From assembly GCA_048937405.1 (NCBI GenBank), contig JBHLNF010000008.1:116725-180724 (forward strand): DNA of 64,000 nucleotides, in the 5' to 3' direction. Source of the stretch: Promethearchaeota archaeon (GTDB lineage: Archaea > Asgardarchaeota > Lokiarchaeia > Sigyniarchaeales > SOKP01). This document shows, piece by piece, positions 1,904-19,021 of the stretch (position 1 is its first letter; each line of letters opens with the position of its first letter). The translations under genes and the position numbers were made by a program. Below the pieces are notes generated by a model. The model did not search any database. It worked only from the letters and a program-made list of their open reading frames with translations, and was not told the origin of the DNA.

Positions 1904-2785
1904 TTAAAGATTTTCAATAGCTGTATTTCTTCTAGTTCGATGGTTTTTTAAACCAATTTCCTCAGAACTTACACCCATTGCTAAAGCTAACAATTCAGTT
2001 ACATATAATACTGGAATATTATATTCAGATTCAAATTTCTTTGAAAGATTTCGCTGTTCACCATCTAATCGTTGAAAACACGCTGGACAGTTTACAACAA
2101 TACAATTAGCGCCAGCTTTTTTAATCGAATCAAGTTTTTGTTTCAATATTGCATCTCCATGTTCTGGATAAGGTCCAGCAACAGCATTTCCACAACAAAG
2201 TCCCAATTCTTCGTAATCAACCACATTAGCTCCCGAAGCAGCGACAATTTCTTTCAAATTTTTTGGACGTAGAGGATCATCAGAATCCATCCATTCAACA
2301 GGTCTCATGTAATGACAACCTGGGTGACAAGCAACCTTTAGATTACTCATTTGCTTTGTAATTCCACCTTTTATTGCATCTAATTTTGATAATAAAACAT
2401 CAACAAAATGCTTTACATCAATGGAACCTTTATATTCCTTTCCAATCTTAGCCAATTCTTTGTTAATGGCTTCTTTTTTATTGGAATCATGCTTTAATTG
2501 ATGCTGTACTCCACGAAGTGTATTAGTACAACCATTGCAGAGTGAAATTATATCTTTACCTTCAGCTTCGGCCAAACATAAATTTCGGGCACCTAAAGCT
2601 AACCAAGTGGTATTATCAAAACTTTTTACTCCAGTAGGATCTGGACAACATGCAAAAGGAGCTTGTGAAGTTTGAACTCCAATTTTATCTAAAACTTTTC
2701 TAGAAGCTGCTTCAATAAATGGAATTCTGTTTCCAATAGTACAACCTTCAAACATTTTATATTCTGCCATTTTGTTTTCCTCCAT
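1904..2785 (-). CDS. hdrB: heterodisulfide reductase subunit B-like (two CCG domains)
   Basis: FEGC...ACCPDP...LCNGC, CHPGCH, LCCG, NCPAC and YVTELLALAMG motifs; follows hdrC. Confidence 0.92.
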   Translation of the reverse strand: MEENKMAEYKMFEGCTIGNRIPFIEAASRKVLDKIGVQTSQAPFACCPDPTGVKSFDNTTWLALGARNLCLAEAEGKDIISLCNGCTNTLRGVQHQLKHDSNKKEAINKELAKIGKEYKGSIDVKHFVDVLLSKLDAIKGGITKQMSNLKVACHPGCHYMRPVEWMDSDDPLRPKNLKEIVAASGANVVDYEELGLCCGNAVAGPYPEHGDAILKQKLDSIKKAGANCIVVNCPACFQRLDGEQRNLSKKFESEYNIPVLYVTELLALAMGVSSEEIGLKNHRTRRNTAIENL

Positions 2786-3318
2786 TATAATTTTTTATCA
2801 GCACCTACTGCTTTTAATAAAGTTTGAATTTCATTAACATCTGGTTCAACAACACTTGGTAAGCCTAATTGCTCACGTCTTCTCTCGATAGCTGGTTGAG
2901 ATGGAATTGCTTTCCCACTTTCAAATACTGTTTTTGCTTGAGCTACAATATTATCAGGTGCCAATCCAGCTCCTGTTGTAACGTTTTTTGCTAATGTTAT
3001 TATTTCCGTAACTTCAATCGCCTGAGGACAAACTGTATCACAAGTATCGCACACTGTACAACCCCATGGTATGATTGCAGATTTTGTACCTGCTAACATC
3101 ATTACTACATCTTTATATCCTAAAAGAGTTCCTAAAACAATTAATCTAGGATCAAAAACATTTTCATAAAAAGGATTAGCTACAGAAGCGACAGGACAGT
3201 TATCCGTACATCTATTACATTGATAGCAGTATTTGATTTTATCAGATCCAATATGAACATCCATTATTAATTTCCTAAATTCAAAATCTATACCTACCGG
3301 TAATGCCATTTTTTTCAC
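2785..3318 (-). CDS. hdrC: heterodisulfide reductase subunit C-like (2x[4Fe-4S])
   Basis: CYQCNRCTDNCP and WGCTVCDTCDTVCP; RREQLGLP C-terminal motif. Confidence 0.9.
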   Translation of the reverse strand: MKKMALPVGIDFEFRKLIMDVHIGSDKIKYCYQCNRCTDNCPVASVANPFYENVFDPRLIVLGTLLGYKDVVMMLAGTKSAIIPWGCTVCDTCDTVCPQAIEVTEIITLAKNVTTGAGLAPDNIVAQAKTVFESGKAIPSQPAIERRREQLGLPSVVEPDVNEIQTLLKAVGADKKL

Positions 3319-3386
3319 GTTTTTTTTTGAGTTATTTTCATTTCATTTTTACTTAATTTTTATTGGTTTTAACCCATGCAAGGGCA

Positions 3387-3423
3387 GTCATATCCAATCT
3401 ATTATTTTTATTGGATAGTTCAT
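3387..3423 (-). promoter_or_regulatory. eukaryote-type SECIS element of vhuU
   Basis: Minus strand reads AUGA-AC-UAUCCAAU-AAAAAUAAUAG-AUUGGAUA-UGAC: AUGA/GA core, 8-bp helix and apical A-run, about 80 nt 3' of the in-frame UGA. Confidence 0.85.
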
Positions 3424-3569
3424 CCTAAACCAACATTTAGCTCACGAGAGTAAATTTCTTTACCCCTCTCATCAACAACAGTGATGTGAGCGGCACATGA
3501 TAGTCAACAATCATAACAACGAACTATCATTTCTAAGACATTTACTACTCCTTCTGGTATATCACTCAT
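3420..3569 (-). CDS. vhuU: selenoprotein VhuU, the separately encoded C-terminal Ni-binding peptide of the [NiFeSe] hydrogenase large subunit (49 aa, Sec22)
   Basis: Hand translation MSDIPEGVVNVLEMIVRCYDC-U(TGA 3506-3504)-LSCAAHITVVDERGKEIYSRELNVGLG*; supplies the L2 motif missing from upstream VhuA; absent from the ORF track. Confidence 0.93.
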
Positions 3570-3606
3570 TTTTTTTATTCACACTCTATATTAATTTTGA
3601 ATTAGT

Positions 3607-4914
3607 CTATTTAATCCATGGATCTGGTAATTTTAATCCATCCAAAGCTTTATCTTCAAATACTTGTTTCGCGGAGTGCATTAAGGACTTTTCGATTCCT
3701 GCGATGTTATGATTAGTAGCTACTAAAAGATTCAGTTTCTTACAAATACCTTGAGCATCGGACCAAATGTTATATAGGAGAAGACCTCGTGGAGCTTCTG
3801 TAACTCCAACACCATTTCCTTCTCTTGGTTGGACATCGAGTGTTTTGCAGTCAGGATTCACAATATCAGGATCTTTGAGTAATGTAGCAATCATCTCAAT
3901 TGATTCTACCATTTCAATTATTCTCGCCCAGTGATATGCAAAAGTATGATGAATTACATTTGTTCCTATCTTTTCTCTCATTGCCTTTAATGCTGCATCA
4001 GCTAATGGCGTAGCCATTTTATCAGCACAATTAATCATTGCTAAAGTATTCGCACGATAAATACCCTCAGGGTATCCTGCTGGCTTATAGTACATATGAG
4101 TAGCATAAGAATGCTTAGGAATGTGTTCTCCAAGTGCTTCCAGATAATTCTGAGGTTTATAATCAAATTTTTCTCCGGTTGGAGATACAATTCTGATATC
4201 ACCGTCATAAATATCATGAACACCATTTTTAGTTAATCCTACATAATAAGTAGGTACCACAGCAACATTAGCTACAACATCCCAATAATCCTCAACTACT
4301 TTTAAAGCTATCTCAACTGTTTTCTTTGTAAATTCTATTTGTTCATCAATTACTTTTAAGAATTTGTCACGCACATCTTCATCTAAAGGCTTTTTCATCC
4401 CTCCAACTATAGCAGCTATTGGATGAACAGCTTTGCCACCAACTGCAGCACATAATTTCTGACCGAAATCCATCATCTTTAATGCCATAGCTCCAACATC
4501 AGGCATTTTATTAATTACATGAACGACATTTCTTAAAGCTGGATCTGCAAAAGGTCCTAATAAGAAATCAGGAGCTGCAAGAGCATAGAAATGAATCACG
4601 TGCGATGAATATTGTTTTGCATTTATTAATAATTGACGCAATTTATATGCGGGAGTAGGAATCTGAACACCCCAAGCATCTTCTACAGCCTTAGTGGGTG
4701 TTAAATGATGTGGAATTGGACAAATACCACAAATTCTTGGAGTAATTCGAGGTACATGTTCGCAATAACGTCCCTCAACAAATTTCTCAAAAAATCTTGT
4801 TGACTGAATATTGAACTGAACATCCTTTACTGTACCATCATCCCCAAGTACTATTCTCAACCCACCATGACCTTCTAATCGAGTAACAGGTTCTACTTCT
4901 ATTTCTTTCACCAT
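3607..4914 (-). CDS. vhuA: F420-non-reducing (group 3c) [NiFe(Se)] hydrogenase large subunit, split form lacking the C-terminal CxxC
   Basis: EPVTRLEGHG, RICGICPIPH (L1), EAPRGLL and ATNHN; ends PDPWIK without DPCxxCxxH. Confidence 0.93.
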   Translation of the reverse strand: MVKEIEVEPVTRLEGHGGLRIVLGDDGTVKDVQFNIQSTRFFEKFVEGRYCEHVPRITPRICGICPIPHHLTPTKAVEDAWGVQIPTPAYKLRQLLINAKQYSSHVIHFYALAAPDFLLGPFADPALRNVVHVINKMPDVGAMALKMMDFGQKLCAAVGGKAVHPIAAIVGGMKKPLDEDVRDKFLKVIDEQIEFTKKTVEIALKVVEDYWDVVANVAVVPTYYVGLTKNGVHDIYDGDIRIVSPTGEKFDYKPQNYLEALGEHIPKHSYATHMYYKPAGYPEGIYRANTLAMINCADKMATPLADAALKAMREKIGTNVIHHTFAYHWARIIEMVESIEMIATLLKDPDIVNPDCKTLDVQPREGNGVGVTEAPRGLLLYNIWSDAQGICKKLNLLVATNHNIAGIEKSLMHSAKQVFEDKALDGLKLPDPWIK

Positions 4915-4916
4915 TA

Positions 4917-6242
4917 TTACATACCTCCTTTTCTTGATGCTAATGTAAATTTTTCAAACGTACCAACAGGATCTTTAACTTGGGAAAGTAATTCCTCTTT
5001 CGATAAACTTACGTTAAATCCCTTTAGTACTGTATCAGCAAACCTCTCTGCTTGATTAACACCCCATTTGGTTTGACCATAACAGCCTGAACATGGAGCA
5101 TTAACTTTAATGCATAAGGCACCACAGCCAGCTTGAGTTACAGGACCCATACAAATATAACCTTGTTCAAGTAAACAATCTTCCATATTTGGTAGTCCTT
5201 CATAATCTCGTTTAACTCTTGTCATTGTAGATTTACTTCCAATGATTCTTGGACATGTATCACAGACATTTGATATTTCATGGAAATCGGGATTATCTCT
5301 TAAAAAGCTCATTAAATTCGAAGCAATTTCCTCAGTTGTAGGGGGAAGATTTGCTAATTGTGTCTCTGGTGCACCACGTTTCTTTATTTGTTTTATAATA
5401 TCACCAGCAAGATCAAAACCAGCCATTAAAGGAAGATTTAAAAACAGGGGTAAAAATTCAAAAATACTCTTTTTATCTCCTGAACTTATGGCTCCAAGAT
5501 TTTTTGTCATACTATTTAATTTTTCAGCTCTGACACCCACAGTTTTAGCTGGTCCCATACAACCTAAACATGGAGATCCATTATTTGGACATTTCATTGA
5601 ACATCCCATGCTTGTAATTGGTCCAAAACACAATTTACCTGCATCTAATAGACATCCAGATTGATTTAACGCACAATCATTACAAAATGCCAAATTATTC
5701 ATAGGGAATGGCTTTTGCCCGAGTAAAAACCCAATTGCACTATATATTTGTTGTGATTTTGGAGGACAACCAGATATATATGCATCCACTTTGATTACCC
5801 TATCTACGGGTACAATCTTAGATTCAAAACCAGGAACATGTTCCGTTGGTTCTCCACCACTTTCATCTGCAATACTCTCTACTTGTGAGAATTTCCTGTC
5901 AATTAATTCTTGTATATCCCATTGGTTAGCTAATCCATGCACATTTCCATAACATGAACAACTACCAAAAGCTACAATAATAGCACATTTTTGACGCATT
6001 AGCTTTGTACCTTCAACATCTTGTTTAGTTCGAAGGCTTCCTTCTATGAATCCAACGACAATTTCACCGTCTTCTCTAGCTTCCAATGAATCATACTTGA
6101 AATCGACTACTGCTGGCCAATAGACAATCTCTAACGCGGGCAAGACTGGCAAAAGGGCTAAATGTAAGTCAACTAAACTCTGATGACAGCCCCAACAGTC
6201 ACTATTTTGCCAAAATGCGACCTTAACAGGTATAGAGATCAC
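4917..6242 (-). CDS. vhuG: F420-non-reducing hydrogenase small subunit VhuG/MvhG, extended with a duplicated Fe-S module
   Basis: DCWGC, FIEGS, AFGSCSCYG and ISGCPP; two copies of CxxC...CLL.QG..C.GP.T..GC...C......C.GC.G; start may be at 6233. Confidence 0.9.
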   Translation of the reverse strand: MISIPVKVAFWQNSDCWGCHQSLVDLHLALLPVLPALEIVYWPAVVDFKYDSLEAREDGEIVVGFIEGSLRTKQDVEGTKLMRQKCAIIVAFGSCSCYGNVHGLANQWDIQELIDRKFSQVESIADESGGEPTEHVPGFESKIVPVDRVIKVDAYISGCPPKSQQIYSAIGFLLGQKPFPMNNLAFCNDCALNQSGCLLDAGKLCFGPITSMGCSMKCPNNGSPCLGCMGPAKTVGVRAEKLNSMTKNLGAISSGDKKSIFEFLPLFLNLPLMAGFDLAGDIIKQIKKRGAPETQLANLPPTTEEIASNLMSFLRDNPDFHEISNVCDTCPRIIGSKSTMTRVKRDYEGLPNMEDCLLEQGYICMGPVTQAGCGALCIKVNAPCSGCYGQTKWGVNQAERFADTVLKGFNVSLSKEELLSQVKDPVGTFEKFTLASRKGGM

Positions 6243-7082: not shown

Positions 7083-7646
7083 TTAAAATGAACCGCAACC
7101 TTTACACTTTCCATCTAAATATGCTGCACAATCATAACATATATTCCCACATTTTTCTTCTTGACTTTCTTGGCTGAATAAATTAATTGGTAAAAACTTA
7201 GGATTGATGAGATCCGATACAAATATTATTGCAGAGTGAAGTATTCCTTTTTTATTCGTAGGGCCGCAATAATTGATATATCGATGTAAAACATCTACAT
7301 TTTGCCCGATTATTCCTAATATCAAATTATATTGACCCGTAACTTGTGCCAGAAGAAAAACTCTTGGACATTCTGAATAAGCTTCAATTATATTTTGTAC
7401 TTCCTCATAGTTTTTCATTTCAATCAAGATAAAAAGAGCTTTAAATTTTAGCTTGTTAATATTTAAGTTAGCTTGAACTTTGAGTACTTCAGATTCTTCT
7501 AATTTAGAAATTCGTTTAGCAATACCGGTATGACTCATAGTTTCATTACCAAATTTATAAATGACTTTTTCTAAAGTTGTTAGGCTTTGACGACCTTCTT
7601 TAAACAATTCAGCTATAATTTGTCTATCAACATTATCTATTAGCAT
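7083..7646 (-). CDS. Lrp/AsnC family transcriptional regulator with C-terminal Cys-rich motif
   Basis: IDNVDRQII HTH, RISKLE, VTGQYNLI RAM domain and CGNICYDC...CKGC tail. Confidence 0.9.
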   Translation of the reverse strand: MLIDNVDRQIIAELFKEGRQSLTTLEKVIYKFGNETMSHTGIAKRISKLEESEVLKVQANLNINKLKFKALFILIEMKNYEEVQNIIEAYSECPRVFLLAQVTGQYNLILGIIGQNVDVLHRYINYCGPTNKKGILHSAIIFVSDLINPKFLPINLFSQESQEEKCGNICYDCAAYLDGKCKGCGSF

Positions 7647-8051: not shown

Positions 8052-8615
8052 ATGCCTTTAGATCAAATTGATAAACAGATTCTAAAATTGTTATTTGAAA
8101 ATGGTCGAGAAAGCCTAAGCTCTTTGAGTATAAACGTTTTAAAATCAAACAAAGAATCAATGAGTCATGCAGGTATTGCAAAACGAATTTCAAAATTGGA
8201 AGATGAACTTATACTTAAGATACAAGGTAATATTGGAATTAATAATTTAAACTATTTTGCTGCATTTATCTTGATTGAAATGAAAAATTATGAGGAACTA
8301 CAAAATATAATTGAAGCATATTCAGAATGTCCAAGAGTTTTTCTGCTGGCTCAAGTTACGGGTCAATATAATTTGATATTTGGAATTATCGGGCAAGATA
8401 TGGATATTTTGCATCGATATATCAATTATTGCGGCCCTACGAATAAAAAAGGAATACTTCACTCTGCAATAATATTTGTATCGGATCTCATCAATCCTAA
8501 GTTTTTACCAATTAATTTATTCGGCCAAGAAAGTCAGGAAGAAAAATGTGGGAATATATGTTGTGATTGTGCAGCATTTATCGATGGAAAGTGTAGAGGA
8601 TGTGGTAACTTTTAA
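8052..8615 (+). CDS. Lrp/AsnC family transcriptional regulator with C-terminal Cys-rich motif (paralogue of 7083..7646)
   Basis: LDQIDKQIL HTH; C-terminal half almost identical to the divergent copy; CGNICCDC...CRGC. Confidence 0.9.
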   Translation: MPLDQIDKQILKLLFENGRESLSSLSINVLKSNKESMSHAGIAKRISKLEDELILKIQGNIGINNLNYFAAFILIEMKNYEELQNIIEAYSECPRVFLLAQVTGQYNLIFGIIGQDMDILHRYINYCGPTNKKGILHSAIIFVSDLINPKFLPINLFGQESQEEKCGNICCDCAAFIDGKCRGCGNF

Positions 8616-8939: not shown

Positions 8940-9611
8940 ATGAACAAGAAAATTTTACGATTGTTCATTATATTCTTCTTTGTTTTTGCAACTATAGGAA
9001 CTGTTAGTGCTTGGCCTGGTTATATGTCAGAATGGGAAGAAACTGATCATGGATCTTGTCATGCGGGAACCTATACTGAGTCTACAGGTACACTATCTGC
9101 AACAATTACTCCTGTAAATACCACAACTGTTACACTCGATCCTGGAACTACCTTTAATGTTACCCTTGATATTACAGGATTTACTGCGGCAGCAAATATG
9201 AGCGTTTTAGTTGGTATATCCGCTAGAATTAGTGATAATCACGATTTCTTTTTTGGTGTTCATAATGATAGTGGAGAGCTTGGAGCAACTGCCTTTGCGG
9301 TTGAATTAGACGCCTCTGGAAATGCTGATAACACAGTAACTATTATTGCATTCGCTCCCACTACTGGTGGTTCTCATACATTAACAATTGTAGCTGTTGA
9401 AGGAGGAGAATCATACGCTACATCTCATGAATTTAATTACATTAAAACTGAAATAACAGTTACAGTTAAATCTACGGGTGGAGGGAGTATTCCAGGATAT
9501 AGTATATTCTTCATTAGTTCTATTGGAGTTATGACTACTATTCCTATAGTGTTAATTACCCTTCGTAAAAGAAAAAATCATAAGGAGTTGAATTCAATTG
9601 AAGAAGAATAA
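8940..9611 (+). CDS. exported, C-terminally anchored beta-rich protein with single-Cys H-x-x-C-H motif; putative atypical c-type cytochrome
   Basis: Signal peptide (..TVSA/WP), DHGSCHAG (only Cys in the protein), SDNHDF, SIPGY plus TM helix and RKRK tail; upstream of ccmC. Confidence 0.6.
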   Translation: MNKKILRLFIIFFFVFATIGTVSAWPGYMSEWEETDHGSCHAGTYTESTGTLSATITPVNTTTVTLDPGTTFNVTLDITGFTAAANMSVLVGISARISDNHDFFFGVHNDSGELGATAFAVELDASGNADNTVTIIAFAPTTGGSHTLTIVAVEGGESYATSHEFNYIKTEITVTVKSTGGGSIPGYSIFFISSIGVMTTIPIVLITLRKRKNHKELNSIEEE

Positions 9612-10272
9612 AATGATTGTGTTAGCTGTAATTACTACCATGATATTTGGTGTTGTAGGTTATGTAGTTGCTCATCCCTCAGAAATTGTAGATTATACGG
9701 GAGCAGATCATGTTTCAACTGGATGTCATGGTACAAATGGTGTTGCTTCTAGCGGAACTCTTCAAGTATCAACCTCAACTTCTGGTAAGTTGATTACCCT
9801 TACTGTTACAATACAAGGATTTACAGATGCACTTCCGACTAGTAATAATAGATCTGGGACATTTTCTATTGGAATTCCTTATAATCTTGGAGATAATAGG
9901 GAATTTGGGCTAGGTATGACGCAAAATACTGTTAATGGCGAGGCTAATTATTGGGGAATCGGTATATGGGACGTTGAATTAGATTCAAATGGAAATACAG
10001 TTAATCCCTTGAGATTTAGAGTGCTAGCTCCTGAAACTGATGGAACATATGATTTAATTGTTGCTGTTATAAATGGAGTAAATTCAGAGGGAGATTACGA
10101 AAGTATTATTTATATGCACAAAATAATATCTGTTGCAGTAACAGGTGGAAGCATAACAATAGCTTCTCTAACTATGATCTTTCCTCTAAATAATATATTT
10201 CTTTATGCAACTTTTGGATTATTTAGTACTGGGATGATAATTTTCGTGTTTAAGCGTAGAAAAATTAGATAA
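9598..10272 (+). CDS. exported, C-terminally anchored protein with single-Cys H-x4-C-H motif; paralogue of 8940..9611
   Basis: Signal peptide, DHVSTGCHG (only Cys), GDNREF, shared VELD.SGN/SNGN and AP..GG/DG; C-terminal TM plus KRRK. Confidence 0.6.
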   Translation: MKKNKMIVLAVITTMIFGVVGYVVAHPSEIVDYTGADHVSTGCHGTNGVASSGTLQVSTSTSGKLITLTVTIQGFTDALPTSNNRSGTFSIGIPYNLGDNREFGLGMTQNTVNGEANYWGIGIWDVELDSNGNTVNPLRFRVLAPETDGTYDLIVAVINGVNSEGDYESIIYMHKIISVAVTGGSITIASLTMIFPLNNIFLYATFGLFSTGMIIFVFKRRKIR

Positions 10273-10351
10273 AATTAATTAAGTCCAACTATAACAATCA
10301 ATTTTTTTTTTATAAACCTTAAAATTTTAAATGAAAAAACAAATTTTTTAA

Positions 10352-11158
10352 ATGTCTGTTAAAAAATTGCAGGAACGATCTAATTCGAATTTAAAGAGCA
10401 TAATGATACGAAATAAAAAAGATCAATTGGATCTATTGAAAATCGTTAAAGATCATTTATTATTAACAATTTCACTTATGATATTAATTATTAATTTATT
10501 ATTAATTTTAATTTTAACATCAAATAATCTAATTATTTGGAGTTCACCTAATCGAATTGTCTATATTATTTTTTTTTACCATGTATCCGGAGCATGGCTT
10601 TCATATTTCTCCTTTGGAATTAGTTTGATTTTTCATATTCTATTCATAAAGTCTCGTAAAAATATTTGGTTTTACTTTGGTAAAAATAGCATACTAGTTG
10701 GAGTATTTTTTTCTGGATTTACTCTTATAACAGGTTCGCTCTGGTTCAATGCTACATCGGGAGATTATAATAATATTTTTTGGGTATGGGGTGATGCTCG
10801 ACAGACTACAACATTAATATTATTCCTTTCCTATTTATCTTATTTGGTATTTGCTAAAATGATTGAAGATAGGGAAAAAAAGGCTAAATTAACAGCACTA
10901 TTAGGTATTGTGCTATTTCCAACAGTTCCATTAAGTTACATTTCAACAATAGTTTTTACAAGTTTACATCCTTTAATTAACCCAACTCCTGGTGAACCTG
11001 GAAATATTTACTGGGATCCTCTGAAATTATTTATGTTATTTTTCAATTTAATTGCAATGACCATATTATTTGTGTATATTATAAAAGAACTAACTTATTT
11101 AGATAAAAAAAAAGAGGAATTGGATAAAATTAGACAAATTCGTTTATTGAGGGATTAA
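10352..11158 (+). CDS. ccmC: cytochrome c maturation haem-handling protein CcmC
   Basis: IFFYHVSGAW, LITGSLW, FWVWGDARQTT (WWD variant) and SLHP; both conserved His present. Confidence 0.88.
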   Translation: MSVKKLQERSNSNLKSIMIRNKKDQLDLLKIVKDHLLLTISLMILIINLLLILILTSNNLIIWSSPNRIVYIIFFYHVSGAWLSYFSFGISLIFHILFIKSRKNIWFYFGKNSILVGVFFSGFTLITGSLWFNATSGDYNNIFWVWGDARQTTTLILFLSYLSYLVFAKMIEDREKKAKLTALLGIVLFPTVPLSYISTIVFTSLHPLINPTPGEPGNIYWDPLKLFMLFFNLIAMTILFVYIIKELTYLDKKKEELDKIRQIRLLRD

Positions 11159-11164
11159 TTAAAG

Positions 11165-11311
11165 ATGTCAATAGAGTATCTGGACCAAGATTTACTAACA
11201 ATAATTATAAGTTATTTGTTATTCTGGGCTATTTTAATCATCCTAATTTTATATCCAAAACTAAAGTTAAAAAAAGTTTTAAAAAGTATTAAAAGTTTAG
11301 AAAACTCATAA
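11165..11311 (+). CDS. ccmD: CcmD-like small single-TM protein (48 aa)
   Basis: Hand translation MSIEYLDQDLLTIIISYLLFWAILIILILYPKLKLKKVLKSIKSLENS*; SY-led TM plus basic tail, located between ccmC and ccmE; below the ORF-track cutoff. Confidence 0.75.
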   Translation: MSIEYLDQDLLTIIISYLLFWAILIILILYPKLKLKKVLKSIKSLENS

Positions 11312-11325
11312 AATAGGTGTGAAAT

Positions 11326-11664
11326 GTGAAAAAATCTAGAATCATAGCAATTATAGGAGTTGTTGTTTCGATTGGTGTTATAATTGCATTATTATCTATA
11401 AATACACGTCCTTACCTCAAAGTATCTCAAGTTGTATCACATTCCACTCGTTATGATAATAAAGAAATTCAAGTTATTGGTATAGTTGAAGGGTATGTTT
11501 CCAGTGATTTTAATTTAACTGAGGGTGAACATAGTATCTTTATTGATCTTAGTAGCATTTCTCCACCTAGTACACTAAAAAATGGTATTGAAGTTGTTGT
11601 AATTGGAATGTTTAGTTCTAACTTAATTTTAGTAGCTGAACAGATTCTTACTCAATGTAGTTAG
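11326..11664 (+). CDS. ccmE: haem chaperone CcmE, Cys-type, truncated immediately after the haem-binding Cys
   Basis: N-terminal TM, PYLKVSQ, IQVIGIV, GIEVVVIG and AEQILTQCS*. Confidence 0.85.
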   Translation: MKKSRIIAIIGVVVSIGVIIALLSINTRPYLKVSQVVSHSTRYDNKEIQVIGIVEGYVSSDFNLTEGEHSIFIDLSSISPPSTLKNGIEVVVIGMFSSNLILVAEQILTQCS

Positions 11665-11669
11665 AAAAT

Positions 11670-12395
11670 TTAGTCATATAAAAGTAAATGAGAAATTAAA
11701 GTTAAGATTGAGATCATAAGAATTATATGAGCAAACAAAAATCCTATTTCATAAATTAGATCATGTACTAATACTCCTTGTAATAATTTTATATTTAATG
11801 AAATTATTGGAGTTGTTATAGGGATAATTAAAGGGAATAGTATAATTGGTAAGATAAATGACTTGTTTTTAGCATACATTGATAAAGCTGAAACCAGACT
11901 TCCACTTATAGATAAATCAAAAGTAGGCAAAATGATTCCTAAAATGATGTAGGTCAATACTTGAATAGAACTTATTCTACCTATTAATGGTGCAGATAAA
12001 AAGAAACTAAAAAGATATAGAATAATCTCTATTAAAGTCATTAAAATTAAACAATATATAGTTTTACTGAAAAGAATTATATTTGGAAAGATTGGAGATG
12101 AAATTAGACCATTTATCGTACCCGATTCCTTTTCTTTGATGAATAATTTTGCCATAATATAGATAAGAGTAAAAAAAATAATTAACCAAATTTGAATTAC
12201 AAAAATCTCTAAAGGCATATTTTGATATTGAGTTCCAAAATTATAAACTGATGAGAATATGAATATTGAGATAATATCAAAAAGAATTACAGCAAATAAA
12301 TCATTCAATTGCCGAACTTCAGATTTAATATCTTTTATTAGTATTGTTTTAAATTGTTTTAATTTTAATTTTAATGATATATCTTCTGTTTTCAA
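11670..12395 (-). CDS. ccmB: CcmB ABC permease
   Basis: KDIKSEVR, KEKESGTINGL.SP and ILPIILFPLIIP; six TM helices; next to ccmA. Confidence 0.88.
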   Translation of the reverse strand: MKTEDISLKLKLKQFKTILIKDIKSEVRQLNDLFAVILFDIISIFIFSSVYNFGTQYQNMPLEIFVIQIWLIIFFTLIYIMAKLFIKEKESGTINGLISSPIFPNIILFSKTIYCLILMTLIEIILYLFSFFLSAPLIGRISSIQVLTYIILGIILPTFDLSISGSLVSALSMYAKNKSFILPIILFPLIIPITTPIISLNIKLLQGVLVHDLIYEIGFLFAHIILMISILTLISHLLLYD

Positions 12396-12407
12396 AAAAA
12401 CACCCTT

Positions 12408-13115
12408 TTAAAATAATGATTCAATTTCATCAAATTCTTCATCTGTAATCCTTCTTTCGATTTTACCTTTTTTTAGAATAATCAAATCATTACATAATTG
12501 TTGAAATAAGTCTGTTTTATGGGTCGTAAGAATTATTGTAACATTATTTTTTTGATTCATTTCTCTGATAAATTTAATTAGCCTATCTGTTGCTACATAA
12601 TCTAAACCAGAAAAGGGTTCATCTAAAAATAATATTGAGGGACTATGGATGATAGATCTTATCAATTCTACCTTTTGTTTCATTCCATGGGATAGAGTTC
12701 TTACAGGTTCATTAATCCAATCTGTAAGATCAAATCTTTCGACTAATTTGTTAATTTTCCGCTTAATATTTCCTTTTTCAAAAATTAAATGTAAGTTACA
12801 ATAGAATTTTAAATTCTCATAAACAGTTAATTCATCATATAGAAAAGATTCATCAGTAGTTATTCCAATATTCTGATATATAATTCTTGAATGATCTTTA
12901 TAATTCATTCCCCCTATTTCAACATTTCCAAAAGTAGGTTTAATCAATCCTGACAATATTTTAATAAGGGTTGTCTTACCCGCTCCATTCGCTCCAGCTA
13001 TCCCAAATATTCTACAATTTTTAATATTAAAAGAATTATTTTTGAGGGCAAAAAAATATCCATATTGTTTTGAAATGTTATTACAAATTATTAAATTATT
13101 ATCGGATTCAACCAT
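12408..13115 (-). CDS. ccmA: CcmA ABC ATPase
   Basis: GANGAGKTT, LSHGMKQK and LFLDEPFSGLD; located between ccmF and ccmB. Confidence 0.85.
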   Translation of the reverse strand: MVESDNNLIICNNISKQYGYFFALKNNSFNIKNCRIFGIAGANGAGKTTLIKILSGLIKPTFGNVEIGGMNYKDHSRIIYQNIGITTDESFLYDELTVYENLKFYCNLHLIFEKGNIKRKINKLVERFDLTDWINEPVRTLSHGMKQKVELIRSIIHSPSILFLDEPFSGLDYVATDRLIKFIREMNQKNNVTIILTTHKTDLFQQLCNDLIILKKGKIERRITDEEFDEIESLF

Positions 13116-13301
13116 AATCTGAATAATATATATTATGAAAATTAAAAATTACAATAATTTGAAGGAATTAAAAGAAAAAAATAATTGCTATTTAATTTAT
13201 CTTATCGAATTTAATTTTCTTTTTATTAATTTAAATAGGATGGAAATTTCATTAGTTGTTATAATCTATAAACCATCTAAATAAAATTTATGAATTTAAA
13301 C

Positions 13302-14993
13302 TCAATTTTTGTTGAAAAAGGTCGTTAATATTGAAGGAATTATCCCACTCAATAGAAAAATAAAGCCTGTGATAAAAAAAATATCTTGAAAAATCCAAAA
13401 ATTCTTACTTATTAAAAATCCTATTAATATAAATGAGATTCCAGTATGAATTATTGTTTTAGAATTTACCTTGAAAAAATGTTTGATTCCTTTCTTAAAC
13501 TTTAAATTTGTTATAATAGACCAAAAAGATACTATTACTGCTATATAAAATATTGCTATAGCTGGATTAATCCAAATATCAAGAAAAATTAATCCTATGA
13601 CTGAGAATATTGATTGAATAATAAAGACTATAATTATCAAAGATATTATTAATTTTATCTCAATTTTTTCATAAATAATACAAAAGATTAATGATAAAGA
13701 CAAACAAATAGCTAATATTAATGTAGTTAATATAAAATAATCTGTTCCTATATATATTATGTTTATGGGAAAAAATTCTGATAGCAATATTGTTAAAGGT
13801 GTAACAAAAAGCCCGAATATGCATACAAAAGATAAGCTAAATAAAAATATGTAACTTAAGTAATTAAAGAGAAGCTTTATTGTTCTATAATCCTGTAATA
13901 TATAATCAAGAATAATATATATTACGTAGAGAGAAAATATTATTAAAATTAATCCAATTATAGTCAACCAGATAATTAATTCAGTTTCTCCAACATAAGA
14001 ATGAAGTGGAGATATTCCTGCTCTTGTAATTAGTGTAGAAAAAATAATAGCAACAAAGATTAATCCTAGATTTATTTTCACTAGATTTGGATTTTTCTTT
14101 TGAAAAGTCATAGTATGAAAGTAAGCAGTAATGAAAAACCATGGAATGAGAGATACTGTTTCAACCTGATCCCAACCCCAATATCTACCCCAGTTCAGTG
14201 CAATCTTAGCCCAATATGCACCCAATCCAATACCTAAAGTAAGAATTAACCAACCAAACTTTAAAGTAAATTTATAAAAATTTTGTTGAAATGATCCTAA
14301 AAGAGTTGTATTTTTTGTTAAAGTTTCTGCAATCACAATTGTAAATGGAATTAGAAAAATCGCATATGCAATAAATGTAAAAAACGGATGCCAAATCATA
14401 AATGGAGATATTAAAAGTGGATTTAAGCCTAATCCATCAGAAGGAGACGATGATTGGAGTTCAAAAGGATTTAGATAAAATAATATTATAAAAAAAATGG
14501 ATGAAACTATTGATGATATTGTTACAGATCGAATGAAGACAATATCTTTTTTGTTTTTATTTCCCATTCTAAATAGAGTGATCATTATTGCATTAAATAA
14601 CATCCATGTCATGATGGATCCTTCTTCACCGGCCCAAATAGCAACAATTTTATAAATTATAGGAAGTGAATTATTGCTAAAACTCCACACATATATAATT
14701 TTGTAGATGTTATTTAGAAAACTGTAAACCATAATTAAAAATAGAATCACCGATAAACTCATAGATAAAATTGATAAAAAATAAGTATTTTGTTTTTTAA
14801 CAATTAATAGAATAAGATCCAGAATCATGATTATAATTAGAAAAATGATTAAAAAGTTGCCTAGAAAGGATATAAAAATAATTCTATAACTTAATTCTAT
14901 TAAATCTAATACTAAAGGAATTATTAATATAAAGATAAGAATTAAGCTGAAATTAATAATAACCATCTTTTTTATCGACATATTAGTAGACAT
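13302..14993 (-). CDS. ccmF: cytochrome c synthetase CcmF (compact, lacking the large C-terminal extracytoplasmic domain)
   Basis: WAGEEGS, GLGLNPLL..P.M.WHP, LGAYWA...LNWGRYWGWDQVETVSLIPW, LHSY and IHTG. Confidence 0.92.
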   Translation of the reverse strand: MSTNMSIKKMVIINFSLILIFILIIPLVLDLIELSYRIIFISFLGNFLIIFLIIIMILDLILLIVKKQNTYFLSILSMSLSVILFLIMVYSFLNNIYKIIYVWSFSNNSLPIIYKIVAIWAGEEGSIMTWMLFNAIMITLFRMGNKNKKDIVFIRSVTISSIVSSIFFIILFYLNPFELQSSSPSDGLGLNPLLISPFMIWHPFFTFIAYAIFLIPFTIVIAETLTKNTTLLGSFQQNFYKFTLKFGWLILTLGIGLGAYWAKIALNWGRYWGWDQVETVSLIPWFFITAYFHTMTFQKKNPNLVKINLGLIFVAIIFSTLITRAGISPLHSYVGETELIIWLTIIGLILIIFSLYVIYIILDYILQDYRTIKLLFNYLSYIFLFSLSFVCIFGLFVTPLTILLSEFFPINIIYIGTDYFILTTLILAICLSLSLIFCIIYEKIEIKLIISLIIIVFIIQSIFSVIGLIFLDIWINPAIAIFYIAVIVSFWSIITNLKFKKGIKHFFKVNSKTIIHTGISFILIGFLISKNFWIFQDIFFITGFIFLLSGIIPSILTTFFNKN

Positions 14994-15185
14994 TAAAAAA
15001 ACACCTAGAATGTATTATTTAAGAATTTTAATAAAGATTTTTAAAATTAAAACATAATTGCATAATTTAGGTGCAATTTTTGCTATAATTCTTTAAAAAA
15101 ATCTTTATTTTTAAAATATATAAACAAGATATAAAAAACAATGCTCATAGATTAATAATACTTTAGCTTGAGTAAATGATAAATC

Positions 15186-16058
15186 ATGAAAAAGAAAATT
15201 TTTTACTTTTTTACTAGTATTATAGTGTTGATGACTTTCTCACTTTTTATCTTCGGAAGCGCGAGGCCTCCATTTGGAGATACTCATTCTGAGAGTGGAT
15301 GTCATGGATCATCGGGGGGTTATACAATTTCGTATACTACTCCTGTAAGAAGTCTTATAAATAATACTCCTTATTTTATTTTTAACATTTCTGCTAGTGG
15401 ACCTGATTTATTTGTACAAGCTTATCCTGGTGCGAAAGATAATGACAATTTTGGTATTATGCCTTCAAATAATAAAATAGTAGACGATTCGGAAAATGAT
15501 TTAAATCCAAATCACGATGCAATGAATATCATTTTCAATGTGACACCAACTGTAGAGCAAAAATCTTATACATTGTTCATAATTGCAGGTAATAATATAA
15601 CTGGGGGTCGACAATTCGCTTATGTTGAAATTATAATTGGAATTCCACCTGGATTTGATTTATCTTCTGTGATGCTCGATCATTTAGGTTTATATTTAGG
15701 ATTACCAGCCTTGTTATTAGTTTCGATTGCAACTATCCTAGTTTTGGTAAATGAAAATAAATTTGTAAAAGTTCATGGAATACTCGCTGGTGGTGCATGG
15801 ATTTTAACAATCATTAATGTTATTGTTGCTGTAATAAAAATACCTAGAGGAGCTTGGCTTGGGGGTTATAATTTAATTTATCATCTTCCTCATATAATTC
15901 TTGGCTCGATTGGTTTGGTTACTGGTTTTTTAAGTATGTTATTTGGAATTGCGGCAGAGAGAAGACCAGCAAAAATCACAGGATATATTACTTTACTCTG
16001 TTGGTGGGGTGCTTTCTTTTTAGGTTATTTTCTAAACTCTAATTTACTTTTAATTTGA
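15186..16058 (+). CDS. exported single-Cys H-x4-C-H domain fused to a 4-TM His-containing cytochrome-b(561)-like domain
   Basis: Signal peptide, DTHSESGCHG and KDNDNF; C-terminal TMs with LDHLG, KVHGILAGG and YHLPHIILG. Confidence 0.6.
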   Translation: MKKKIFYFFTSIIVLMTFSLFIFGSARPPFGDTHSESGCHGSSGGYTISYTTPVRSLINNTPYFIFNISASGPDLFVQAYPGAKDNDNFGIMPSNNKIVDDSENDLNPNHDAMNIIFNVTPTVEQKSYTLFIIAGNNITGGRQFAYVEIIIGIPPGFDLSSVMLDHLGLYLGLPALLLVSIATILVLVNENKFVKVHGILAGGAWILTIINVIVAVIKIPRGAWLGGYNLIYHLPHIILGSIGLVTGFLSMLFGIAAERRPAKITGYITLLCWWGAFFLGYFLNSNLLLI

Positions 16059-16080: not shown

Positions 16081-17574
16081 ATGGGTCAATCTAAAAATAA
16101 TTCGAAAAATAATTATAGGAAAAGTGAAGAAAAGGATCTTGAAAATCAATTTTTAGAATTTATATCTCCTTATCATGTAAGCACAAATCCTTTTGAACTT
16201 GAATCTGCTTCAGCAGATCTTACTTCTCTACCTGCCTACCATTATAAATTCAAAAAGAAATATTTAGCTAGTTATGTTATCCGTCCAGCCAACATTAATG
16301 AACTATCATTAGCTATAAAAAAGTGTAGAGATCTCCATATTCCCGTAACAATTCGAGCTGCTGGAACATCATGTTTTTCTTCAGCAACACCTTCAATGGG
16401 AGGTGTAATTATAGATATACGTAGATTAAACAAAGTCCATGAAATAAATCAAGAAAAAATGACGGTAAAAGTAGGAAGTGGAATATCTTGGCTAAATTTA
16501 ATAGAAGCATTATCTGATTATGGACTTGAACCAAAAACTTTCCCAACTAGTTTTAAAACTTCATGTGTAGGAGGCTTTATTGCAACTCCAGGTAAAGCTG
16601 GTATTGGTGTATTGAAATATGGAACAATGGAATCCACAATTATTTCTGTAGATCTAGTTAAGCCAGATGGCACTGTAATCAAAATTTCGAGAGATTCTAA
16701 TCAAGAAATAAGTATTAGTGATTTTGTAGGTACATATGGTATCTTTGGAGCAATAGCAAATGTTGAATTATCTATTACTACCCTAAAAACTTCATTAGAG
16801 ATAATAGGTTATGGATTTAACTCAATTGAGCAAGCAATAAATTTTTATTTATTAATAAAAGAGGATTTACCCAATAAACCATTATTTCTTTCAATTTCAG
16901 AAAGAAATTTTGAAAAATATTCACATGTTGCTTTTCCAAAAGAGGAATGGATCGTTTGGGCGGTATATTATGATGAACCTGAACTAACTTCAAAAAGTAT
17001 ATCAGATGTTAAACACCAAGCATCCAAGTTAAATTGTGTAGAAATTGAGAGTTCTTATTTAAAAGAAAAGTGGCGTGATATTAGTGATGCTGAAGTATCG
17101 ATAGGATCTTCGACAAGGAACCTCATTTTCCAAGAATATTGGATCTCTGATAAGAGATTAAAAAAGTTTATAGGAATATATGTTAAAAAAGTTAAGAGTT
17201 ATAAATTTCCTACAGCTTCATACGCAATTTCCGGAGAAAAAGGTTGGACAAGAGTGAAAATTTTTGGTTTAACAGATATCGATAGAACTATAGAATTTTT
17301 CGCAGTTAAAGCTTTCTTACATGATTTAACTATTCAAGCCTTCAGTCAAGAAGATAGACTATATACTATTGGCATTGTCAATACATTTTACTTATTAAAG
17401 TATAAAGCAGAAGAAGTAAAGAAATGGAAGATTCTTAAGGAAAAATTAGATCCTAAACACTTATTCAATTCATATAGATTAACTAATGCGAGAATGAAAT
17501 TTTGGAGAGTATCATTACTTTTTAACATGGCAAAGCTATTGTATAAGATATTTAAAATAAAACGCTCTAAATAA
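16081..17574 (+). CDS. FAD-linked oxidoreductase, GlcD/D-lactate dehydrogenase family
   Basis: VIRP, TIRAAGTS, GGVIID, SCVGGFIAT, GTYGIFGAI and LDPKHLFN. Confidence 0.88.
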   Translation: MGQSKNNSKNNYRKSEEKDLENQFLEFISPYHVSTNPFELESASADLTSLPAYHYKFKKKYLASYVIRPANINELSLAIKKCRDLHIPVTIRAAGTSCFSSATPSMGGVIIDIRRLNKVHEINQEKMTVKVGSGISWLNLIEALSDYGLEPKTFPTSFKTSCVGGFIATPGKAGIGVLKYGTMESTIISVDLVKPDGTVIKISRDSNQEISISDFVGTYGIFGAIANVELSITTLKTSLEIIGYGFNSIEQAINFYLLIKEDLPNKPLFLSISERNFEKYSHVAFPKEEWIVWAVYYDEPELTSKSISDVKHQASKLNCVEIESSYLKEKWRDISDAEVSIGSSTRNLIFQEYWISDKRLKKFIGIYVKKVKSYKFPTASYAISGEKGWTRVKIFGLTDIDRTIEFFAVKAFLHDLTIQAFSQEDRLYTIGIVNTFYLLKYKAEEVKKWKILKEKLDPKHLFNSYRLTNARMKFWRVSLLFNMAKLLYKIFKIKRSK

Positions 17575-17677: not shown

Positions 17678-19021
17678 ATGAGTGAAGGAAAAGAAAAAGT
17701 TGATTTAAAAAATATAGTAACTTCTGGTCCACCTGTAGCAGGTTTAGTTTCTCCATCAAGAGACAATTTAGTCGAACCTTCAGATAAGTATAAAGATGAA
17801 AAATCTTTTGAACGATGTACTCATTGTGGTTATTGCCGTCATGTTTGTAAAGTTTATAATACCTCTTGGTGTGAAACTGACTATGCTGGAGGTCGGAATA
17901 GAATTATCAAAGCATTGGATCGAAAGGATATTAAATTCGATAAGGAGCAAATAATACCTTCGGTTTTTCGTTGTATGTTATGTGGTAATTGTAAAGTTGT
18001 GTGTCCAGTTCAAGTAGATACGCTAAGTGTTTTCCAGAATTTTAGGAAAAAAGTAGTAAAAAAAGGAGCAATGCCTGAAAAATTAAAAATCCTTAAAAGT
18101 TCGATTATAGAAAATAATAATCCATTTCTAGAAAAACATGGTGATAGATTTAATTGGATAAATGCTTGTGAAGAGGGAGCTGAAGCTTATGAAAGGAGTT
18201 CTCAGAGACTGGAGACCTTAGTAGAAGAGAAAGGAGATTATTCTGTAGGGTATTTTGTCGGGTGTACATCGTCATATCGAAATAAAGAACTTGTATCGGC
18301 TACTAGTCGTGTTTTAAAGAAATTAGGCATTGAGTTCACACTTTTTCCAGAGGAAAGATGTTGTGGTTCTGTGTTGTTTCGAACTGGATTAGAAGATGAA
18401 GCTATTGAACTTATAAAGCATAATTATGAAATAATTCGTAAGAGTGGAGTAAAAGAAGTTGTTTTTTCATGTTCGGGTTGTTTTTCAACGTTTTCACTTG
18501 AATATTCCAAATTTGCTAATTATAATCTTGGATTTGATTTGTATCATATTACTCAATATGCTTTAAAAATTGTAAAGGAAAAAAATCTTAAAATTAGATA
18601 TACAAAACGCACAAAGGATGATCCTTTACTCATAACTTATCATGATCCATGTCATTTAGGCAGATATTGCAACGTTTTTGAAGAACCTAGAGAACTCATT
18701 CGAAGAATTGAAGGAGTTAAATTATTTGAAATGAAACACAATAGAGAAATGTCTTGGTGTTGCGGTGCAGGAGGTGGTGTGAAAGCTCTATATGGGGATA
18801 TGGCACTTGAAGTTGGAAGGGACAGAATTTCGGAAACACGTGCTTGTATGGTTCGAATGCGAGAAGACCGTTTAAAAGAAGCAATTGAGACATCAGCAGA
18901 AGTTCTTGTAAGTTCCTGTGTCTTCTGTAAGAATAATTTATTTCAAGTCGCTACTGAAGATAATTCTCCAATAAAAGTTATGGATATTTCACAACTTTTA
19001 GCTGATTGTGAGTATTATTAA
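17678..19021 (+). CDS. Fe-S oxidoreductase, GlcF/HdrD-like (2x[4Fe-4S] plus two CCG domains)
   Basis: CTHCGYCRHVC, CMLCGNCKVVCP, YFVGC, RCCG, YHDPCHLGR, CCGAGGG and SCVFC. Confidence 0.9.
   Translation: MSEGKEKVDLKNIVTSGPPVAGLVSPSRDNLVEPSDKYKDEKSFERCTHCGYCRHVCKVYNTSWCETDYAGGRNRIIKALDRKDIKFDKEQIIPSVFRCMLCGNCKVVCPVQVDTLSVFQNFRKKVVKKGAMPEKLKILKSSIIENNNPFLEKHGDRFNWINACEEGAEAYERSSQRLETLVEEKGDYSVGYFVGCTSSYRNKELVSATSRVLKKLGIEFTLFPEERCCGSVLFRTGLEDEAIELIKHNYEIIRKSGVKEVVFSCSGCFSTFSLEYSKFANYNLGFDLYHITQYALKIVKEKNLKIRYTKRTKDDPLLITYHDPCHLGRYCNVFEEPRELIRRIEGVKLFEMKHNREMSWCCGAGGGVKALYGDMALEVGRDRISETRACMVRMREDRLKEAIETSAEVLVSSCVFCKNNLFQVATEDNSPIKVMDISQLLADCEYY

Follow-up and report, generated by a model that had tools for sequence, protein, structure and literature searches.

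A cytochrome c maturation cluster in a Lokiarchaeia genome with exported single-cysteine proteins as its candidate clients

The ccm cluster and its three exported proteins

We analysed a 64,000-nt stretch of DNA (the window; positions 116,725 to 180,724 of contig JBHLNF010000008.1, assembly GCA_048937405.1) from a Promethearchaeota archaeon, whose 4.47-Mb genome is 100% complete with 5.7% contamination, for a cluster of ccmABCDEF genes of cytochrome c maturation (Ccm) and three exported proteins around it, labelled S1, S2 and S3 (Table 1). The three proteins carry an H-x(2-4)-C-H motif in place of CxxCH, and a divergent Ccm dedicated to them probably attaches haem through one thioether. Pfam and NCBIfam matches in the window covered ccmC, ccmE, ccmB, ccmA and ccmF. 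The initial annotation, made from the letters of the window, had placed three exported proteins on both sides of the ccm genes, and their open reading frames (ORFs) and motifs were found where it had put them. S1 and S2 contain exactly one Cys each, as it had said, with an additional Cys272 in S3; the three share a DNxxF motif (at residues 99 of S1, 99 of S2 and 85 of S3), and the beta-rich domain common to them is immunoglobulin (Ig)/Reeler-like. The C-terminus of S1 gave a weak Loki-CTERM match below the cut-off.

Table 1. Coordinates of the ccm cluster, the exported proteins and the adjoining redox genes in the window.
Feature	Coordinates	Strand	Remarks
S1	8940..9611	+	Signal peptide, predicted mature start Trp-Pro, H-x2-C-H site, Ig/Reeler-like domain, C-terminal membrane anchor
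S1 haem-site motif H-x2-C-H	9048..9062	+	Residues 37-41, single Cys40
S2	9598..10272	+	S1 paralogue, 14-nt overlap with S1, H-x4-C-H site, C-terminal anchor, single Cys
S2 motif H-x4-C-H	9709..9729	+	Residues 38-44, Cys43
ccmC	10352..11158	+	Pfam/NCBIfam; ligand His77 and His206 retained; WWD loop altered relative to sister family f12
ccmD-like 48-aa ORF, single transmembrane segment	11165..11311	+	Identity from position and size only; position conserved in relatives
ccmE, Cys type, truncated	11326..11664	+	Ends Cys-Ser-stop, Cys codon 11656-11658, without the Tyr of CxxxY
ccmB	11670..12395	-	PF03379, E 5.8e-11
ccmA (ABC ATPase)	12408..13115	-	Assigned via adjacency to ccmB
ccmF, 563 aa	13302..14993	-	WWD motif intact; His202/293/331/516; ~120 aa shorter than f12 CcmF
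S3	15186..16058	+	H-x4-C-H domain fused to multi-transmembrane domain with conserved His166/197/233/236, candidate haem b anchor
S3 motif H-x4-C-H	15285..15305	+	Residues 34-40, Cys39; Cys272 in C-terminal membrane part
FAD-linked oxidoreductase (flavin adenine dinucleotide; GlcD-like, below family cut-off)	16081..17574	+	Directly after S3 in nearly all related loci, including CxxCH loci of f12
4Fe-4S dicluster and CCG-domain protein (GlcF/HdrD-like)	17678..19021	+	Conserved downstream of FAD gene

The association of H-x(2-4)-C-H proteins with ccm genes recurs across Asgard genomes, as the proposal of the initial annotation would require, both in gene order and in distribution. Related loci conserve the order S1/S2-ccmC-D-E, ccmB-A-F, S3-FAD-CCG, with synteny of the cluster in >20 genomes, and several of them hold an extra fourth domain member, 800-1500 aa long and containing Ig repeats. 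Of 250 genomes drawn evenly from the phylum, 61 belonged to the window's family (f1) and 65 to f12, a sister Asgard family with CxxCH forms of the S1/S2/S3 domain. In this draw the domain occurred in 14/61 window-family genomes and ccmE in the same 14, an agreement that holds gene by gene and spans two genera, and in f12 the domain was found in 31/65 and ccmE in 29/65 genomes (relatives in these counts are not independent, owing to kinship).

Within the window's genome the domain is present in exactly three copies, all at the ccm cluster. Among 312 exported-looking ORFs genome-wide, S1, S2 and S3 were the only ones with Cys-His at residues 26-65, against a chance expectation of ~0.03 for H-x(2-4)-C-H matches. 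Searches of the genome turned up neither exported CxxCH cytochromes nor multihaem proteins, and CxxCH matched in a single membrane protein, which is of a four-CxxC zinc-finger type. The lack of ordinary CxxCH cytochromes, noted initially for the window, thus extends to the whole genome; the proposal of a dedicated Ccm with single-Cys substrates holds up, with no other candidate clients in the genome, and scans that count CxxCH would indeed miss S1-S3. For want of that motif the three proteins fall outside the canonical c-type cytochromes; being exported and having a Cys-His homologous to the Cys2-His of CxxCH, they would belong to the broader class if haem is covalently attached.

A histidine in the column of the first cysteine

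A profile search for the S1/S2/S3 domain across 1.84 billion representatives returned 219 matches, and motifs were counted in a 150-row homologue alignment, 2-6 residues upstream of the motif Cys. The motif Cys and the His following it were invariant (two rows with a one-residue insert), and His37, Cys40 and His41 of S1 were invariant among 34 homologues. Upstream of the motif Cys, 71 rows had His only, 60 Cys only, none had both and 19 had neither (relatives again not being independent). The most frequent positions of His (68 rows) and Cys (33 rows) share a single alignment column. The spacing to the motif Cys was x2 in 39, x3 in 18 and x4 in 11 rows for His, and x1 in 19, x2 in 27, x3 in 3 and x4 in 10 for the upstream Cys (Cys1). 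The His-type and Cys-type profiles aligned with each other in hhalign at 99.65% (E 4.5e-25). Because it occupies the column of Cys1 and never co-occurs with it, the upstream His replaces Cys1. Its role as a second iron ligand, which the initial annotation had raised, is unlikely given the same column and exclusivity, the Cys1-like spacing of 2-4 residues, and its absence from 19/150 homologues.

The two forms were distributed by family. Among 61 proteins from 24 genomes of the window's family, 56 had His, 5 neither and 0 Cys upstream; Cys was found upstream in 25/25 f12 proteins, and 2 proteins of a further Asgard family, f19, had neither residue. In f12, several CxxCH-form genes have ccmF and a multihaem cytochrome gene as neighbours, and the FAD and CCG genes follow them as they follow S3. 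A quick, unrooted tree of the domain separated S3-type from S1/S2-type clades (SH-aLRT 99) with His and Cys forms in each, therefore the swap concerned the two paralogues alike and not a single gene in decay, and we infer that the change went from Cys to His. The metagenomic locus L139 contains a CxxCH S3 together with His-type paralogues around one ccm with a truncated CcmE, which is the most direct sign of a haem site and of the same machine serving both forms. The initial annotation had regarded homologues mostly with CxxCH as fatal to its proposal. Distant homologues do have CxxCH, but the one-Cys form is nearly universal in the window's family, so the CxxCH of the distant members makes the haem assignment stronger.

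Several other motif forms were observed. A compressed C-x-C-H form was present in 19/150 homologues (L137:10001-11893, L050:1363-2217 and protein matches such as P0143), and a short H-x-C-H form in L141. One residue separates Cys and His in L030:8149-8925 (H-E-H-C-G-H) and likewise in P0046 and P0067. Single-Cys members without an upstream His occur in f19 (L076:18793-19755, L075:2125-5826, L124, L125), in genomes (80-86% complete) that have a CcmF-like gene and no CcmC or CcmE match, one of them also encoding CxxCH exported proteins by ccmF. At L030, L031, L131 and L137, S3-type genes without an upstream His are not followed by the FAD gene: an Hdr-like module of a membrane-bound 4Fe-4S protein and a CCG protein takes its place, and ccmF is present twice in L031.

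The Ccm machine and the fold of the clients

The ccmA, B, C, E and F genes, forming the core of System I and System I*, were all present, with the CcmF WWD motif and conserved His and the CcmC ligand His intact. Archaeal CcmE has been described as universally CxxxY (PMC9084895), whereas the window's CcmE retains the Cys and lacks the Tyr. This Tyr was missing in all 22 window-family genomes read, 20/22 of which end Cys-Ser-stop at the same place; f12 CcmE had CPS[KR]Y in 27/27. Compared with the canonical WG-x-x-W-x-W-D, which f12 CcmC has, the WWD loop of the window's CcmC has its first Trp replaced, a longer loop and a residue inserted before the Asp. The cluster resembles System I* of Desulfovibrio and Methanosarcina (PMC3601427, PMC9084895) in its ccmABC(D)EF core, the Cys in CcmE, the lack of linked ccmG/H and the intact CcmF WWD and histidines, and differs from it in the CcmE that stops after Cys, the altered CcmC loop, the shorter CcmF, the ccmD-like ORF and a genome without a CxxCH client. 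The window pair would work like a c-type cytochrome/System I* pair, yet has neither CxxCH in the client nor CxxxY in CcmE. The ccmD-like ORF (window 11165-11311) is conserved although CcmD has been reported missing from archaea (PMC9084895).

The absence of ccmG and ccmH from the window, an element of the initial annotation, needs qualifying at the level of the genome. The window genome does not contain the CcmG plus CcmH of classical System I, and CcmH was not found in it, but a membrane-anchored CPPC thioredoxin and CcdA-like pair lies on contig C7, unlinked to ccm (C7:443839-445340 of genome G000, locus L123). We rejected the missing ccmG/H as evidence for one-Cys chemistry, on which it has no bearing, because CcmH is also absent from a CxxCH relative and System I* commonly does without ccmG/H (PMC3601427, PMC9084895). 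A comparable thioredoxin/CcdA-like pair is located near ccmF in G022 (L030).

A model of mature S1 (predicted local distance difference test score 87.8) consisted of a short N-terminal helix, a motif loop and an Ig-like sandwich. Pfam yielded nothing useful on S1, S2 and S3, the Atlas hint for the domain was Reeler, sequence searches of the PDB returned weak Ig-like matches only, and the top matches in Foldseek and VIA were generic Ig/macroglobulin domains, with Reeler and cytochrome f low in the lists. The Reeler-like choice-of-anchor V family (NF041895) was matched by 62/150 family members at E<=0.01 (best 7.5e-10), with no match for S1 or its genome and no relative tested above the 42-bit cut-off. 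Like the window proteins, its members are exported beta-sandwiches in which a haem-type motif comes early and the anchor varies; it differs in that S1 has no match and the S1 relatives match only weakly. The initial annotation had proposed a new class of surface cytochrome; the one-Cys feature stands, but the proteins are better described as one-Cys variants within a CxxCH beta-sandwich family that is uncharacterised and has choice-of-anchor V as a relative.

Cytochrome f shares with the window proteins a mature X-Pro N-terminus, a short first helix, an early CH, a beta-sandwich and a C-terminal anchor. The window proteins differ in having no small domain, no b6f context and one Cys, and sequence homology is not established. 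The structural alignment (2jxm_B, Z 6.7, root-mean-square deviation 3.9, 126 residues) ran from residue 1 to residue 1 among generic matches, and the sequence comparison was weak (59% for the Cys subset, none after motif removal). No other conserved His, Met or Cys column that could hold a distal ligand was found in the 150-row alignment. Predicted mature starts, based on heuristic cleavage sites, had Tyr at +1 in 21/103 and Pro at +2 in 27/103, against 10/254 and 12/254 in the background. The N-terminal amine is an axial ligand in cytochrome f. A similar distal ligand is plausible here, given the enrichment of X-Pro starts and the lack of a conserved distal His or Met. In the membrane domain of S3, the four conserved His (38, 43, 37 and 43 of 44) suggest haem b; an Atlas search with this domain gave no match above noise. 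The same domain also exists on its own in f12, encoded by a 136-aa gene that FAD-oxidoreductase genes flank (L065:498-908, L072:2318-2728).

Haem attachment and its alternatives

Following System I chemistry, CcmABCD would load haem onto the terminal Cys of CcmE, and CcmF would pass it to the exported apoproteins, where the motif Cys would form one thioether at the 4-vinyl and the next His would serve as the proximal iron ligand. The upstream His would lie where Cys1 would meet the 2-vinyl, unbonded and perhaps aiding the release of CcmE, and the distal ligand may be the free N-terminal amine. Gene order is consistent with S3 binding the FAD/CCG enzyme and joining this cytoplasmic FAD/Fe-S/CCG dehydrogenase via membrane haem b to an outer c-type haem, with S1, S2 and the Ig-stalked versions in relatives as putative surface carriers. 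We consider it very probable that haem is covalently bound through the motif Cys, whether or not the His is bonded as well, and on balance probable that a divergent System I* Ccm dedicated to S1/S2/S3 attaches it via a single thioether and leaves the upstream His unbonded.

Four points weigh against this single-thioether reading. System I is considered to require the two cysteines, and the E. coli Ccm uses single-Cys apocytochromes very poorly, stalling as a CcmE-haem-cytochrome complex (PMC3268396); therefore the window's Ccm must differ, and would avoid the stall most likely through its altered CcmE and CcmC. The CxxCH S3 of L139 rules out a strict tie of CcmE truncation to one-Cys clients. 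The likeness to cytochrome f is weak in sequence and structure. Finally, porphobilinogen synthase and ferrochelatase were not found in the window genome, nor was AhbD above the cut-off. We rejected missing haem synthesis as an argument against haem, since f12 and a further Asgard family, f26, nearly all without porphobilinogen synthase (0/61 window-family genomes, 1/65 in f12, 0/18 in f26), encode Ccm and ordinary multihaem cytochromes. Genomes of all three families are apparent haem auxotrophs that likely obtain haem through salvage. A FecCD permease is encoded in the window genome at C7:144237-145190.

The upstream His might instead form a second covalent link, an N-C bond to the 2-vinyl beside the thioether of the motif Cys to the 4-vinyl, and so take over from Cys1 as the nucleophile that displaces CcmE. 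We know of no Ccm that makes His-haem bonds in its product, and the homologues with neither His nor Cys, including 5/61 in the window's family, indicate that a second link is dispensable, which makes this arrangement unlikely despite the location of His in the Cys1 column, its exclusivity with Cys1 and its copying of the Cys1 spacing range. His-vinyl bonds do exist in E. coli CcmE (PMC3268396) and GlbN (PMC8179489), and such a bond would resolve the problem of the stalled intermediate. About as unlikely is the full combination in which a Ccm with tail-less CcmE would make a thioether and a His-vinyl bond in cytochromes ligated, like cytochrome f, by the N-terminal amine, which would form an overlooked chain for electron transfer at the surface of Asgard archaea that salvage haem. 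An upstream His serving as distal axial ligand next to one thioether, from its own chain or a neighbouring subunit, would fit its invariance in the S1 and S3 orthologue sets, the lack of another conserved side-chain ligand and the bis-His ligation that SfmD combines with a single thioether (PMC8179489). It is nevertheless highly improbable, as the Cys1 relatives without this His show no substitute ligand and the 2-4 residues plus Cys between the two His appear too short to span the porphyrin.

Sets of His, Cys and His can bind Cu or Zn, and the site might hold such a metal or non-covalent haem, for instance by capture in a haem auxotroph, with the Ccm otherwise employed or only handing haem over. 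The haem synthesis genes not found in the genome, the changes in CcmE (no Tyr), CcmC (WWD loop) and CcmF (length), and the generic Ig-like fold are compatible with this, but it is improbable given that the domain is directly homologous to CxxCH forms, occurs with them in mixed loci, co-occurs exactly with ccmE and is linked to FAD/Fe-S redox genes, and that CcmF has its motifs intact. Patchy presence (14/61 genomes) and the truncated CcmE could also come from a degenerating cluster in which Cys1 was lost through drift. Conservation largely refutes such decay, to which we assign a negligible probability: frames are intact, 24 genomes from two genera have the same motif, the CcmE stop recurs in 20/22, and the change is common to two ancient paralogue clades.

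A single-thioether product would set this system apart from those described. The known single-thioether haems, namely euglenozoan cytochromes (PMC8262978), haem ci and SfmD, are not Ccm products. Euglenozoan cytochromes c and c1 (A/FxxCH) similarly lost Cys1, kept Cys2-His and have a predicted single thioether; they differ in being matured by KCCS, in the class I fold and in having Ala or Phe instead of His at Cys1 (PMC8262978). SfmD and haem ci/cn of b6f are cytoplasmic or on the n-side, with no CH motif in this order (PMC8179489, PMC5526843). A precedent for lyases dedicated to odd motifs comes from NrfEFG for CxxCK and the CX15CH lyase, also co-located maturases specialised for non-canonical substrates, which retain both cysteines (PMC3601427). 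Our literature search, with subscription journals outside its coverage, returned no relevant papers on HxxCH, choice-of-anchor V or Lokiarchaeal ccm, and none on a one-Cys Ccm system in the literature searched. If correct, a natural Ccm with all clients lacking Cys1 would make the release of CcmE from haem directly testable, with CxxCH f12 and the mixed locus L139 as ready-made controls, and the old problem of single-thioether haem in Euglenozoa (PMC8262978) would gain a parallel among prokaryotes. Surface haem proteins linked to a flavin/Fe-S dehydrogenase would then exist in some Lokiarchaeia that CxxCH counts rate as lacking cytochromes, with a bearing on electron disposal by Asgard archaea.

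Upstream of the ccm cluster, and conserved there in relatives, are two divergently oriented genes for Lrp/AsnC-looking regulators whose C-termini carry a Cys cluster (window 7083-7646, minus strand, and 8052-8615, plus strand; no Pfam match at 1e-5); they adjoin NiFe hydrogenase and HdrBC-like genes (window 1904-6242).

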